A DNA stretch of 64,000 nucleotides from Escherichia phage vB_VIPECOMC06. The position numbers were made by a program, and so were the translations under genes. The notes under the pieces are model-generated. The model saw only the letters and a list, made by a program, of their open reading frames with translations. It was not told where the DNA came from and searched no databases. Shown here one piece after another: positions 17,478-44,844 of this stretch; within the stretch, counting starts at the first letter, position 1, and the number at the start of each line of letters is the position of its first letter. The DNA is taken from sequence record PQ416618.1. One strand, given 5' to 3'.

Positions 17478-17846
17478 ATGAAAAAATTAATCGCTTTAGC
17501 AATGGTATTTGGATTAACCGGATGTGGTGCCCATGGCTTTATCCCTAATAACGTCGGCCAATTGATTTACAATCCGAATGTTAAACAGTATGACCAACCT
17601 AAAGTTGAAGTGGAAGACCCGGTTACTGTAGGTAATCGAATGATTCAAGCTGATGCCCATGCTCAACGTTATCGTGACTCTGATACTGTAGCATTGTCAA
17701 AAGAACAACGCGTTAAAGAACATTGTCTACAGGCTACTGAAATCGCATTCATTCGCTATGTTGAAACAACTGGTAAAGAGCCTACCCAGAAACAAATCGC
17801 AAATAACTACGTCCAGTGTATTGAACGTTTAAACAAATTTAACTAA
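17478..17846 (+). CDS. Putative lipoprotein (122 aa)
   Basis: Signal peptide MKKLIALAMVFGLTGC with lipobox LTGC. Confidence 0.5.
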   Translation: MKKLIALAMVFGLTGCGAHGFIPNNVGQLIYNPNVKQYDQPKVEVEDPVTVGNRMIQADAHAQRYRDSDTVALSKEQRVKEHCLQATEIAFIRYVETTGKEPTQKQIANNYVQCIERLNKFN

Positions 17847-17907
17847 TTGGTTTATACCAAAGTTAAAATAAGATATTATAAACATAACAAATCAAGAGGA
17901 AATTAAC

Positions 17908-18156
17908 ATGGAATTATTCGTAGCTAGTTCAGTAGCTGTTTTAATCGCAGGTATTGGTTCAATCATCATTTACATGTTGCCTTGGGTAATCGCACTTATT
18001 CGTGGCACAAAAAGCACAACAGCAATCTTTTTTGTATCTTTACTCTTTAACTGGACGATGATTGGTTGGATTGGAACTTTAATTTGGTCTATCGTTGCCG
18101 AAAAGAAATCTGCTCAGCAGCCTCAACAAGTAATTATTATTCGCGAAAAAGAATAA
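17908..18156 (+). CDS. Small inner-membrane protein (82 aa)
   Basis: Two predicted TM helices (VAVLIAGIGSIIIYMLPWVIALI; AIFFVSLLFNWTMIGWIGTLIWSIV); RBS agagga. Confidence 0.5.
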   Translation: MELFVASSVAVLIAGIGSIIIYMLPWVIALIRGTKSTTAIFFVSLLFNWTMIGWIGTLIWSIVAEKKSAQQPQQVIIIREKE

Positions 18157-18160
18157 ACTT

Positions 18161-18190
18161 GTTTACATTATAGATGGACTATAGTATAGT
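18161..18190 (+). promoter_or_regulatory. T4-type early promoter with palindrome straddling the -10 (ggacta / tagtcc)
   Basis: GTTTAC 18161-18166, 18-nt spacer, TATAGT 18185-18190; inverted repeat 18176-18181 / 18190-18195. Confidence 0.55.
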
Positions 18191-18219
18191 AGTCCTATCA
18201 AATCAACTAAGGAGTTAAA

Positions 18220-18513
18220 ATGAAAAAGTTATCATTGGCAGCAATCTTACTTGCAGTATCATGTGCACCGGCTCCAGTTACGGCAGGTTATGATAAAGAC
18301 CTCTGTGAGTGGTCAATGACTGCAAATCAAGAAGATGTTGAACAACAAATCTTCTCTGATATCATGAACATCACTAAACGAGACCGTCCTAATATGGTTA
18401 ATAAAGTTGTTGAACAACTTAAGTCTGGCGGTATCATGCAGTACAATTATGTTTTGTATTGTGACCCTAATTTCGATAACAAAGATATCGTAACCGAAAT
18501 CACAGGTGAATAA
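18220..18513 (+). CDS. sp: Spackle-like periplasmic protein (superinfection exclusion / lysozyme inhibitor), signal peptide
   Basis: 97 aa; signal peptide MKKLSLAAILLAVSCAP; size, position upstream of 61 and GYDKDLCEWSMTA resemble T4 Sp as I recall it. Confidence 0.5.
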   Translation: MKKLSLAAILLAVSCAPAPVTAGYDKDLCEWSMTANQEDVEQQIFSDIMNITKRDRPNMVNKVVEQLKSGGIMQYNYVLYCDPNFDNKDIVTEITGE

Positions 18514-19383: not shown

Positions 19384-19851
19384 ATGGGTATTATTAACAC
19401 TGCAATAGATTCTGTTTATGCATATAAGTTTATTCGACTAATGCAAAAACCTTTTATCGAATGGAAAGCATACGAAGCCAAAATCATCGATGAACGTGGA
19501 AGCGTTCTTAAACGTCCTTCTACTCCCGAAGAGAAAGCGGCGTATACACCTTTTCATGCTTCAGTTCGTTCAATGAAGCGAATGATGAGCACTGTTCCGG
19601 GTCTTAATGGAATGGCCTCAATGATGTCTGCCTGGAGTGCTGTAGCATCCCGCTATAACATTACAGAAGAACAACAGAAAGAAATATTTAAAGAACTCCC
19701 TTTATTTGAGGATATGGTTGCTGGTGATTCAGGTGGCAGCCCCCAAGCTATTGCATCAGGAACAACTACAGGTGCAGTCGTAAATAAAGGTCCAGAACAA
19801 ATTCCTTCCAAGAAAAGAAAGCGAATTAAAGTAAATATTAATAAGTTGTGA
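19384..19851 (+). CDS. Hypothetical protein (155 aa)
   Basis: ATG 19384 preceded by strong SD aggaggta (track start 19357 is an upstream TTG). Confidence 0.5.
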   Translation: MGIINTAIDSVYAYKFIRLMQKPFIEWKAYEAKIIDERGSVLKRPSTPEEKAAYTPFHASVRSMKRMMSTVPGLNGMASMMSAWSAVASRYNITEEQQKEIFKELPLFEDMVAGDSGGSPQAIASGTTTGAVVNKGPEQIPSKKRKRIKVNINKL

Positions 19852-19857
19852 TATGAT

Positions 19858-19877
19858 GGCCTTATTAATTTAAGGCC
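19858..19877 (+). other. AT-rich hairpin (ggcctta-ttaatt-taaggcc) immediately upstream of the gene 61 SD
   Basis: 7-bp inverted repeat 7 nt after the upstream stop and 4 nt before GGAG of gene 61; no U tail. Confidence 0.4.
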
Positions 19878-19890
19878 TCTGGAGAATACT

Positions 19891-20913
19891 ATGGCTGAAT
19901 GGATAGATAATGAATTTGCTTATCGTGCGTTTTCTCACCTACCTCGTTTTAGACAAATCAATAATTCAAGCACATTTAAATTAACATTTCGATGTCCAGT
20001 TTGTGGCGACTCCCAGACAGATGCAATGAAAGCTCGCGGATGGTATTATGGCGGTACTCCTGGTAATGTACATTGCTATAATTGTCAATACCACAATACA
20101 ATTTCCGGATACTTAAAAGAGTATGATGAAGAGCTTTATCGCGAATATCTAATGGAAGTTCGTAAAGAAAAAGCTAGAATGGAACCAAAGATTGAAAAGG
20201 TTCCTGAACATAAACCAGAGCCGGAGAAAAAGACTATAAATTCTTTGCCGTCTTGTTCTCGTCTGGACAAGCTGCCTGAAGAGCATCCTATTGTGAAATA
20301 TGTTAAGTCTCGATGCATTCCTAAAGAATCATGGAACAGATTATGGTTCACATTAGAATGGCCTAAATTGGTCAACAAGATTCAACCCGGCACATATAAG
20401 AAAGAGATTCCTGAACCGCGTTTGGTTATTCCTATTTTTAATAAAGACGGGAAGGCTGAGTCATTCCAAGGACGTGCACTTCGTAAAGATGCTCCTCAGA
20501 AATATATCACTATTAAAGCGTTTGAGTCTGCAACAAAAATTTATGGTGTTGAACGTGTTAAGGAAGGAGACGTCTGGGTAATGGAAGGCCCTATTGATAG
20601 TTTATTCATACCCAATGCAATAGCTATTACAGGCGGCTCGATAGATTTAGATGTGGTACCATTTAAAGAACGTCGGGTATGGGTAATGGATAATGAACCT
20701 AGGCATCCGGATACTATAGCTCGCATGAAGCGATTAGTTGATGCAGGCGAACGTGTCATGTTCTGGGACCGAGCTCCGTGGAGATCAAAGGATGTGAATG
20801 ATATGGTGATGAAAGAAAATGCAACACCACAAGAAATTTTAGAATATATGAAACAGAATATTTCAAGTGGGTTGCATGCTAAAATGAGATTATCTCGTTA
20901 TTCGAAGATTTAA
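19891..20913 (+). CDS. 61: DNA primase gp61
   Basis: 340 aa; zinc ribbon CPVCGDS...CYNC; TOPRIM-like C-terminal region; matches T4 gp61 in length. Confidence 0.9.
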   Translation: MAEWIDNEFAYRAFSHLPRFRQINNSSTFKLTFRCPVCGDSQTDAMKARGWYYGGTPGNVHCYNCQYHNTISGYLKEYDEELYREYLMEVRKEKARMEPKIEKVPEHKPEPEKKTINSLPSCSRLDKLPEEHPIVKYVKSRCIPKESWNRLWFTLEWPKLVNKIQPGTYKKEIPEPRLVIPIFNKDGKAESFQGRALRKDAPQKYITIKAFESATKIYGVERVKEGDVWVMEGPIDSLFIPNAIAITGGSIDLDVVPFKERRVWVMDNEPRHPDTIARMKRLVDAGERVMFWDRAPWRSKDVNDMVMKENATPQEILEYMKQNISSGLHAKMRLSRYSKI

Positions 20914-21107
20914 ACAAGCCCTATAATAGCAAAGGCCAAATCAACTACAGTATCCAATGGAACAGAAGGAACTATAATACCATGGGCAACTAACAATGGT
21001 GCAATCCCGAAGTTCCACGAAATAATGCCACCTACAACTATTGCAGCGATAGCAGTTTTCTTTTTATTGCCTTTAATAGCGTTGATTAACGATGGAAGTT
21101 TAAACAT
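20910..21107 (-). CDS. Small membrane protein (65 aa) on the opposite strand, convergent with gene 61
   Basis: Strong SD (revcomp ctaaGGAGat) 5 nt upstream of the ATG at 21107; two hydrophobic segments; its stop overlaps the gp61 stop. Confidence 0.4.
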   Translation of the reverse strand: MFKLPSLINAIKGNKKKTAIAAIVVGGIISWNFGIAPLLVAHGIIVPSVPLDTVVDLAFAIIGLV

Positions 21108-21196
21108 AATATCTCCTTAGTTACCTTATTATTTATTACGCTTTATAAAATTAATGTTAGAATTAACTCTCTTATACTGAATTGAAAGGAAAAATA

Positions 21197-21718
21197 ATGG
21201 CGCACTTTAACGAATGTTCACAACTTATTTCTGGTGTTGATAAAGCAGAAGAAGCTTATTTTAATGCTCTGATTCACGAAGATAAAGACCCACTGCAGGT
21301 AATGCTTGATATGCAGAAATCTTTACAAGTTCGTCTGGCAAATGACAAGCCTGAACATAACAAACATCCTGATGAATTGGCCACTGCTGGTGATGTTGTT
21401 GATTGGCTGCGTAATCAGAAAGATTATATTGATGATGAATTCCGTGAACTGTTGACTTCACTTGGCGGTATGAGCAATGGTGAAAAAGCCGCTAGCTCTG
21501 TATGGAAACCGTGGAAGGCACAACATGCTGAATATCGAAATCGTCGTATCGATGAACTGTCTCCTGAAGACCAGCTTGAAATTAAATTCGAGATGATTGA
21601 TATCCTCCACTTTGTCCTGAACATGTTCCAAGGTCTGGGTCTTTCTGCTGAAGAAATCTTTAAACTGTATTACTTGAAAAACCAACACAACTTTGAACGT
21701 CAGGATAATGGTTACTAA
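21197..21718 (+). CDS. 56: dCTP pyrophosphatase gp56-like (MazG-like all-alpha NTP-PPase)
   Basis: 173 aa from ATG 21197 (track start 21182 is an upstream TTG); acidic EExxE-type motifs DDEFRELL and EMIDILHF; adjacent to soc and 61. Confidence 0.6.
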   Translation: MAHFNECSQLISGVDKAEEAYFNALIHEDKDPLQVMLDMQKSLQVRLANDKPEHNKHPDELATAGDVVDWLRNQKDYIDDEFRELLTSLGGMSNGEKAASSVWKPWKAQHAEYRNRRIDELSPEDQLEIKFEMIDILHFVLNMFQGLGLSAEEIFKLYYLKNQHNFERQDNGY

Positions 21719-21724
21719 TTAAGT

Positions 21725-21732
21725 TATAAATA
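21725..21732 (+). promoter_or_regulatory. T4 late promoter TATAAATA upstream of soc
   Basis: Exact TATAAATA 32 nt upstream of the soc ATG. Confidence 0.7.
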
Positions 21733-21763
21733 CACCTGTAATTAAACAACAAAGGAGTTAATT

Positions 21764-22000
21764 ATGGGTGGTTATGTAAACATCAAAACCTTTACGCATC
21801 CTGCCGGTGAAGGCAAAGAAGTTAAAGGTATGGAAGTTTCTGTACCGTTTGAGATTTATTCAAACGAACATCGGATTGCAGATTCTCATTACCAAATCTT
21901 TCCGTCAGAAAAGGCAGCATATTCTACTGTAGTTTCTGATGCAGCTGATTGGAAAACTAAGAATGCTGCAATGTTTACCCCTACACCGGTAAGCGGTTAA
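21764..22000 (+). CDS. soc: Small outer capsid protein Soc
   Basis: 78 aa; GYVNIKTF and HYQIFPSEKAAYSTV match T4 Soc as I recall it; late promoter upstream, strong terminator downstream. Confidence 0.8.
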   Translation: MGGYVNIKTFTHPAGEGKEVKGMEVSVPFEIYSNEHRIADSHYQIFPSEKAAYSTVVSDAADWKTKNAAMFTPTPVSG

Positions 22001-22006
22001 TAATTT

Positions 22007-22040
22007 AAGGAATCCTTCGGGATTCCTTTTTTTTTTTTTT
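22007..22040 (+). terminator. Rho-independent terminator after soc (UUCG-loop hairpin plus 14-T tract)
   Basis: aaggaatccTTCGggattcctt followed by a 14-T run. Confidence 0.85.
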
Positions 22041-22049
22041 GTTTCTACA

Positions 22050-22079
22050 GTTTACAACCACTAAAAACTGTGTTAAGAT
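22050..22079 (+). promoter_or_regulatory. T4-type early promoter (-35 GTTTAC, extended -10 TGtTAAGAT)
   Basis: GTTTAC 22050-22055, 18-nt spacer, TAAGAT 22074-22079. Confidence 0.5.
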
Positions 22080-22108
22080 AATTCTTACTTACTCAAGAGG
22101 AGAACAAT

Positions 22109-22336
22109 ATGTTAAATCGTTGGATTAAACCTAATAACACATTAGGTGCTTTGATTGCTCAAGAAGTTTCGTTGAAATACGGTCTTGGATATTACGATGA
22201 TGTAGTCGTACACTCATTCATGATGGATGGTGAAGACGTCAAATTTAATGCCGAAATCCGTTGGGATGATGGTGGTGTTCGTTTTGTTCGAGGAACAATT
22301 AATGCTTACGATGCTGAAGAAGTTGTTTGCTGTTAA
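22109..22336 (+). CDS. Hypothetical early protein (75 aa)
   Basis: ATG with RBS agaggag. Confidence 0.45.
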   Translation: MLNRWIKPNNTLGALIAQEVSLKYGLGYYDDVVVHSFMMDGEDVKFNAEIRWDDGGVRFVRGTINAYDAEEVVCC

Positions 22337-44292: not shown

Positions 44293-44844
44293 TTACTTAA
44301 AGATATTTATAATCGCTTTGACAATAGATTTGTTTTCAAGGTCAGGGAATTTGGGGAATTCACCGCCAAGATGTTCATGTTTTTCTAAAAGGGCAAAGAA
44401 TTTTTTGAGCTCTTTAAATTTTCGTTTTTCTTCTCTATTAGCAACCTCTGCGTCAATAAGAGAACTTAAAACACTGAATAATTTATAGAGTTCATGAATT
44501 TTCTTATCACGTTGAACTACGCGTTTATATGCTTCATCTTCCTTCCACCCGTCGTCGGTCCAAATGTCAAATTCGCCAGGTTCTTCTGTAGTAACATTTT
44601 GAAGAGCCCCTGGAGTGTCAATAACAATTTTTTGCTTATCATAAGTCCATACTGTTTTTCCGCGATGGTCTTCAACATAAACCCATTCTTGCTCGCGTTC
44701 GTCAAATATAACAGCATAGCCTTCTTTATGGTCTAAAGGTTTTTTTGGTGTCGAATGAGCCGGAAATCCTACGCCTTTTAATGGTTTATAATTTTCTTCT
44801 TTGTAAAATTCTTTAGTGTCAAAATAATAGTGATAGAGTTTCAT
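44293..44844 (-). CDS. 38: gp38 tail-fibre assembly chaperone (T4 type)
   Basis: 183 aa; MKLYHYYFDTKEFYKEENYKP... T4-type gp38. Confidence 0.85.
   Translation of the reverse strand: MKLYHYYFDTKEFYKEENYKPLKGVGFPAHSTPKKPLDHKEGYAVIFDEREQEWVYVEDHRGKTVWTYDKQKIVIDTPGALQNVTTEEPGEFDIWTDDGWKEDEAYKRVVQRDKKIHELYKLFSVLSSLIDAEVANREEKRKFKELKKFFALLEKHEHLGGEFPKFPDLENKSIVKAIINIFK

Follow-up and report, generated by a model that had tools for sequence, protein, structure and literature searches.

A small gene that runs against its neighbours beside the primase gene is already on record in T-even phages: RB69, T4T and hundreds of further genomes carry it as an annotated hypothetical protein, and it forms a PHROG of its own (phrog_2024, unknown function). 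A literature search for RB69ORF029w, RB32ORF030w, dam.1, T4Tp032 and phrog_2024 returned a single mention of the ORF, in the supplement of Nolan et al. 2006 (supplement of PMC1524935), where RB69ORF029w was listed with a predicted membrane span (a single TMHMM span at residues 21-41) and was negative in SignalP; no relevant ribosome-profiling or small-protein study of T4 was found. With respect to gene layout, the closest described systems are the T4 late genes located within early regions, soc and t, which have in common with this ORF an 8-bp late box, a spacing of about 12-24 nt, a strong Shine-Dalgarno (SD) sequence and an ATG, and which like it are short single-gene units. Geiduschek and Kassavetis listed 50 T4 late promoters, 32 of them perfect and 9 with A at -13, the commonest variant in their list, and T4 late transcripts may have either polarity (PMC2988020). 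Position -13 is poorly conserved in T4 relatives according to Nolan et al. (PMC1524935), who listed no late promoter at the RB69 counterpart of the site described below (supplement of PMC1524935).

Here we describe the copy of this ORF in Escherichia phage vB_VIPECOMC06 (PQ416618.1), which was found in a stretch of 64,000 nucleotides that was analyzed as a whole and is referred to as the window (cf. Table 1). The 2.3 kb around the ORF are 97-98% identical to Mosigvirus genomes (RB69/HX01 group, T4-type), and by its sequence the window is assigned to an RB69/HX01-like Mosigvirus. The gene order on the + strand is spackle, three small ORFs, gene 61, gene 56 (dCTPase, ATG at 21197) and soc; the small ORF sits on the other strand between genes 61 and 56, with all adjoining genes on the + strand and a spacer of 89 nt to gene 56. 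It begins at the first ATG past the upstream stop in the ORF listing, and at its other end it overlaps by 4 nt with gene 61, which ends at 20913, so that the two stop codons interlock. Of the 25 CDS in the corresponding 10 kb of RB69, all but RB69ORF029w (24) lie on the early strand. The original prediction of a 65-aa - strand ORF with AAGGAG at 5 nt and a stop overlapping that of gene 61 describes what is present in the sequence, and its interpretation as a gene for a small membrane protein that lies on the opposite strand and converges with the primase gene is supported by the data given below. It was overstated in one respect, namely that such an antisense gene is unusual, since T4 late transcripts are known in either polarity (PMC2988020) and the ORF had already been annotated in relatives.

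Table 1 Positions of the small ORF, its signals and protein segments, and other genes of the window considered in the text
Feature	Position	Strand	Remarks
Gene 61 (DNA primase)	19891..20913	+	phrog_47, E 1e-101; converges on small ORF
TTAA common to the converging stops	20910..20913	.	gene 61 TAA on +, small-ORF TAA on -
Small-ORF CDS, 65-aa membrane protein	20910..21107	-	stop codon included; RB69ORF029w / T4T Dam.1 / phrog_2024 family
C-terminal tail, codons 44-65	20913..20978	-	conserved P47, D/E52, G63; alignment, AlphaFold
Conserved transmembrane helix (predicted), codons 18-41	20985..21056	-	hydropathy, Hessa sums, AlphaFold, TMHMM; W31-N32 and P37 invariant
Shine-Dalgarno AAGGAG	21113..21118	-	5-nt spacer ATATT, then ATG 21107..21105; read from sequence
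Putative gp55-type late promoter box AATAAATA (-13 to -6)	21130..21137	-	24 nt before ATG
MotA-type middle promoter of gene 56 (cGCTTTA, 12 nt, TAGAAT)	21130..21170	+	equals RB69 Pm:16038 (supplement of PMC1524935), mapped onto the window
Holin gene t, canonical T4-type, 219 aa	43624..44283	-	phrog_860, E 6e-102; perfect TATAAATA box at 44311

Several features of the surroundings were recorded as well. The ORF list gives a TTG at 21182 as the start of gene 56, and annotated relatives use the ATG at 21197, which yields 173 aa. When the stretch 20913..21764 is set against T4, the Mosigvirus version is found to be without dam, which in T4 lies between the small ORF and gene 56, and without the homing endonuclease gene segF, which in T4 lies between 56 and soc. 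The imm gene (PF14373; region 17908..18513, + strand) directly adjoins spackle, as in RB69; no imm is annotated beside sp in the T4 stretch that was examined. A strong intrinsic terminator (22007..22028, + strand; 9-bp stem, then T10) is located just past soc and is the only terminator-like site in 19500..22300.

The product of the small ORF (MFKLPSLINAIKGNKKKTAIAAIVVGGIISWNFGIAPLLVAHGIIVPSVPLDTVVDLAFAIIGLV, 65 aa) matched phrog_2024 over its full length (residues 1-65 on profile positions 1-65, E 1.9e-27), and positional homologues from five other lineages all matched the same profile with E values of 1e-22 to 1e-31. By sequence it is a member of the RB69ORF029w / T4T Dam.1 / phrog_2024 family: RB69ORF029w (NP_861719), T4T Dam.1 (ADJ39749) and RB32ORF030w agree with it in family, length, position and orientation, and the window copy is simply another member that shows no difference of substance from RB69ORF029w or Dam.1. 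The RB69 protein differs from it at one of 65 residues, and several published Mosigvirus genomes encode a protein that is 100% identical. A tblastn search with the window protein retrieved about 690 phage records (692), 148 of them at 95% identity or more, with 54% identity for the T4 homologue; with the Karamvirus homologue as the query, 934 records were found, including many Klebsiella phages. The concern that the ORF might be poorly conserved or disrupted in relatives, which would have told against the original prediction, did not materialize, since at least 685 of the 692 records retain at least 80% coverage. In phage T4_ev240 (LR597657.1; locus L022, 1410..1470) an A-run is one base short (GGTAATAAAAACGTATAG), which puts the homologous ORF out of frame past codon 16; the missing base reflects either an error in sequencing the homopolymer or a real loss, and a real loss would suggest that the gene is dispensable.

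Homologues were found in Tequatrovirus (including T4), Mosigvirus, Gaprivervirus, Karamvirus and Klebsiella T4-like phages, always on the opposite strand, with gene 56 (or, in phages that have it, dam) on one side and the 3' end of gene 61 on the other; position and orientation were confirmed in RB69, NBG1, T4, T4T, a Gaprivervirus, Karamvirus CkP1 and two Klebsiella T4-like phages. Among the genera checked, only Tevenvirinae carry the small ORF, and in Krischvirus RB49 there is no ORF at the locus, genes 61 and 56 being only 14 nt apart. When 1.84 billion representative proteins were searched with a profile, two clusters only were retrieved, both from the phrog_2024 family itself, and a word-indexed protein search gave close relatives only. 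The 4-nt stop overlap with gene 61 recurs in T4, CkP1 and the Klebsiella phage kv_tblp2. It is absent in Gaprivervirus, where a 118-nt gap contains a terminator-like site (locus L005, 1692..1810), and in Roth76, where an 18-nt gap contains a GGGGC/GCCCC hairpin (locus L019, 1950..1970).

The length of the ORF is weak evidence for its reality, because antisense ORFs of 60-90 aa occur by chance in the AT-rich window and are numerous in its ORF listing. What identifies it as real is that it is intergenic, not placed inside another gene, that it matches phrog_2024 over the full length, that its homologues are conserved and that they show a pattern of selection. Within Mosigvirus and Tequatrovirus pairwise dN/dS was 0.04-0.22, compared with 0.36-0.63 among the Gaprivervirus-like phages, and the variable sites within clades were distributed 25/5/35 over codon positions 1/2/3, with an excess at position 3 (P = 5e-4). 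Since dN/dS within genera is low and codon position 2 is almost invariant, the small ORF is a real coding gene under purifying selection on its amino-acid sequence. A 31-aa ORF on the + strand (21025..21120), antisense to the small ORF, was set aside as the mirror image of a hydrophobic ORF.

Upstream of the gene, an 8-bp box and an SD precede the ATG in the same layout as that seen at soc, the holin gene t and two tail-fibre genes, each of which is preceded in the window by the perfect late box; for t the spacing of box, SD and ATG hardly differs from that of the small ORF. Out of 11 one-mismatch sites of the type [ACG]ATAAATA in the window, only the one at 21137..21130 leads to an SD and an ATG, and the transcript predicted from it would start near 21124 on the - strand, with a leader of about 17 nt. 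In every lineage examined, a late box (judged by the consensus NATAAATA) precedes the start codon by 12-24 nt, and it is kept across genera while its flanks diverge; an SD, AGGAGG or AAGGAG, is found at the same place in all homologous loci. The box reads GATAAATA in T4, AATAAATA in T4_ev240, CATAAATA in Gaprivervirus-like phages, TATAAATA (perfect) in kv_tblp2 and ATTAAATA, with two mismatches, in Karamvirus CkP1, whereas Roth76 has both GATAAATA and CATAAATA. In most lineages the first base is A, G or C and not T, which counts against the late reading and distinguishes the small ORF from soc and t. It also differs from these two genes in that it opposes the flanking early genes and that, in the phage of the window, it is without a terminator of its own. 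No sigma-70-like promoter was found upstream of the small ORF on the - strand. Because the late box is conserved and no sigma-70-like promoter was detected on that strand, expression late in infection is likely, and the guess of the original prediction that the gene may be late-expressed fits the sequence to this extent. On the + strand, the 89-nt spacer also contains the middle promoter of gene 56, which is arranged back to back with the putative late box and overlaps it. According to a feature note of the T4 record, the T4 gene 56 transcript primes the replication origin oriA, so that the spacer may be a busy regulatory hub.

Taken together, we consider it probable, at roughly 0.7, that the small ORF is a real Tevenvirinae gene with its own late transcription and a single-pass inner-membrane product, to which an accessory role in the envelope is attached with low confidence. 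According to this model, the gene would be transcribed alone and in the opposite sense to the early and middle genes around it, from the gp55-type promoter at 21137..21130, and the resulting mRNA would carry the short leader together with a strong ribosome-binding site. No early or middle promoter points into it, from which we infer that the protein should appear only late. Earlier in infection, read-through from gene 61 to gene 56 would cross the ORF in antisense, as should be expected because no terminator was found that separates these two genes. The 65-residue product would then most likely insert in the inner membrane as a single-pass protein, with a Lys-rich, cytoplasmic N-terminus, a span at residues ~18-41 and a conserved 22-residue acidic C-terminal tail at the periplasmic face.

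The topology was deduced from simple scales and from an AlphaFold model built with 19 family sequences, which contains helices at residues 3-11, 15-41 and 51-62 (mean pLDDT 82). In each of the six homologues tested, the first hydrophobic stretch could plausibly span the membrane (Hessa, hydropathy), and it is directly preceded by the Lys-rich segment K12-K17 (KGNKKK). For the second segment of these six proteins, the summed Hessa insertion energies were +3 to +14 kcal/mol; the two hydrophobic segments of the original prediction are therefore a true feature of the window's sequence, but only the first is a plausible span across the family. The N-terminal flank has a net charge of +5 and the C-terminal part of -2 in the window, T4 and Gaprivervirus-like homologues, and this bias is weak or absent in three more distant ones. 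According to these data, the protein probably has its N-terminus inside, crosses the membrane once and leaves a short C-terminal tail on the outside, and the helix 51-62 is predicted to be a short amphipathic helix at the periplasmic face. In the family alignment W31, N32, P37, G43, P47 and G63 do not vary, and A41 and D56 hardly do. The protein carries the core motif, W-N-[F/Y/L] followed by P four residues on, G six later, P four later and an acidic residue five later, and two Klebsiella-phage homologues keep W-N, P, G, P and the acidic residue at 52. Comparison of the model with the PDB gave no match and with BFVD only members of the family itself, and a profile search against PDB sequences gave no match either. 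Similarly, searches of Pfam and NCBIfam (E up to 10) and PADLOC (E up to 1) with the ORF and 18 family members yielded only scattered insignificant matches. A relation to Imm (PF14373), which is likewise a small inner-membrane protein from this group of phages and is encoded 3 kb away (17908..18156), was considered and rejected: hhalign gave a probability of 0.5%, there was no Pfam match and the likeness to a loop of Imm was judged to be a matter of chance. The two proteins show no homology, and imm lies on the early strand, whereas the small gene would appear late.

A protein that is small, probably late and embedded in the membrane could be a second holin, a pinholin or an antiholin-like protein that sets the time of lysis together with the T holin. 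The window sequence has two hydrophobic stretches, like the 65-95-aa class II holins (for the classes see PMC12283622), with which it is also comparable in size, as it is with pinholins (S21, Pfam Phage_holin_2_1), and a few records label its homologues 'holin'. These labels were found to be unsupported, as the sole structural match so named is a member of the same family that was labelled by its depositor. Furthermore, no match was obtained at E up to 10 with the curated holin families in Pfam, NCBIfam and PHROGs, and the second stretch is not kept as a span, in agreement with the single span given by TMHMM for RB69ORF029w. The protein has neither two transmembrane domains in the N-in/C-in orientation of class II holins nor the highly charged, hydrophilic C-terminal cytoplasmic tail of holins; its charged domain is N-terminal and its C-terminus (...AFAIIGLV) is hydrophobic, which is the reverse of the typical arrangement. 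Moreover, the phage possesses the canonical holin gene t with a perfect late promoter (cf. Table 1), and RB49 is without an ORF at the position in question. We conclude that the small protein is not the phage's holin, and that a contribution to lysis timing as a second one is unlikely. A paper on 'holins' of coliphage ASEC2201 proved to be unrelated, as it concerns S21-type holins of a Drexlerviridae phage (PMC12283622).

It was also considered whether the N-terminal 43 residues might be a long cleavable signal peptide, the removal of which would release a 22-residue acidic, hydrophobic peptide at the periplasmic face. In every lineage the hydrophobic core is followed by P-x3-[A/T]-[H/Q]-G, which fits the -3/-1 rule of signal peptidase I, and T4 RI has reportedly likewise been re-interpreted as having a cleavable signal peptide (PMC8385771). 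However, a core of 19-23 residues (compared with about 7-15 in typical cases) and an n-region of 17 residues are long for a cleaved signal, RB69ORF029w is SignalP negative and TMHMM positive (supplement of PMC1524935), and the AlphaFold model shows one continuous helix through residues 15-41. Cleavage is disfavoured because the hydrophobic core is long, and this explanation appears quite improbable.

The interlocking stop codons raise the question of what happens to the transcript past the small ORF. A terminator search found none downstream of the gene in the window, and no stable RNA fold was detected in 20830..20935 on the - strand (z = -0.24); because no terminator was found after the small ORF, a late transcript should run antisense into gene 61. 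The RNA might then be the important product, shutting the primase off late, and the peptide merely incidental; the interlocked stops, present in four lineages, would oblige the transcript to enter gene 61 there. This is very improbable in our estimation, since (i) purifying selection acts on the amino-acid sequence, (ii) the strong SD is conserved and (iii) the overlap is not, as indicated by the 118-nt spacer with its terminator-like site in Gaprivervirus and the hairpin in Roth76. Finally, no evidence was found for the 'toxin-like' label of the original prediction, and we see hardly any chance that the product is a host-killing peptide resembling type I toxins and kept under control by antisense transcription on the early strand. 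The peptide is small and hydrophobic, and its gene is wholly covered by early/middle antisense read-through, but no type I toxin or holin family matched it, the best hit being a non-significant Ldr_toxin match (E 0.1) of one out of 18 members, PADLOC gave no relevant match, no promoter-like site for a dedicated antisense sRNA was found within the ORF beyond chance, and late host killing would be of no obvious use to a strictly lytic phage.

Returning to the late, single-pass inner-membrane protein as the preferred explanation, its role may, with low confidence, be an accessory and probably dispensable envelope function in the late or lysis phase, for example in membrane state or lysis timing. 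A review of lysis inhibition names only rI, rII, rIII, rIV (=sp) and t as r genes (PMC6832632), and because this list omits the small-ORF locus, it provides no hint of a link with lysis inhibition. It seems rather doubtful, though conceivable, that the T-even phages as a group share a late inner-membrane protein that has been overlooked and may be an unrecognised late component of the envelope, such as a modulator of T-holin triggering, of the stability of lysis inhibition or of membrane integrity in the long lysis-inhibited state.

The T4 homologue (66 aa) is encoded between dam and gene 61 at 17738..17938 (+) of NC_000866.4 (locus L002, 3239..3439), yet it is omitted both from this RefSeq record and from the original 1984 record X01416, while T4T (HM137666) names it dam.1 and the recent T4 assembly OZ209057 gives it as a hypothetical protein. 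Two T4 omics studies, of the transcriptome and the proteome, count only the features of NC_000866.4 (PMC9697503; bioRxiv 10.1101/2024.04.04.588121), and such studies cannot report the small ORF because that record omits it. The practical value of the finding is thus one of annotation: T4, the best-studied phage, carries a conserved, selectively maintained gene that is missing from its reference record. Otherwise an ordinary conserved hypothetical gene, it could, once added to the T4 record, reveal one more late membrane player.
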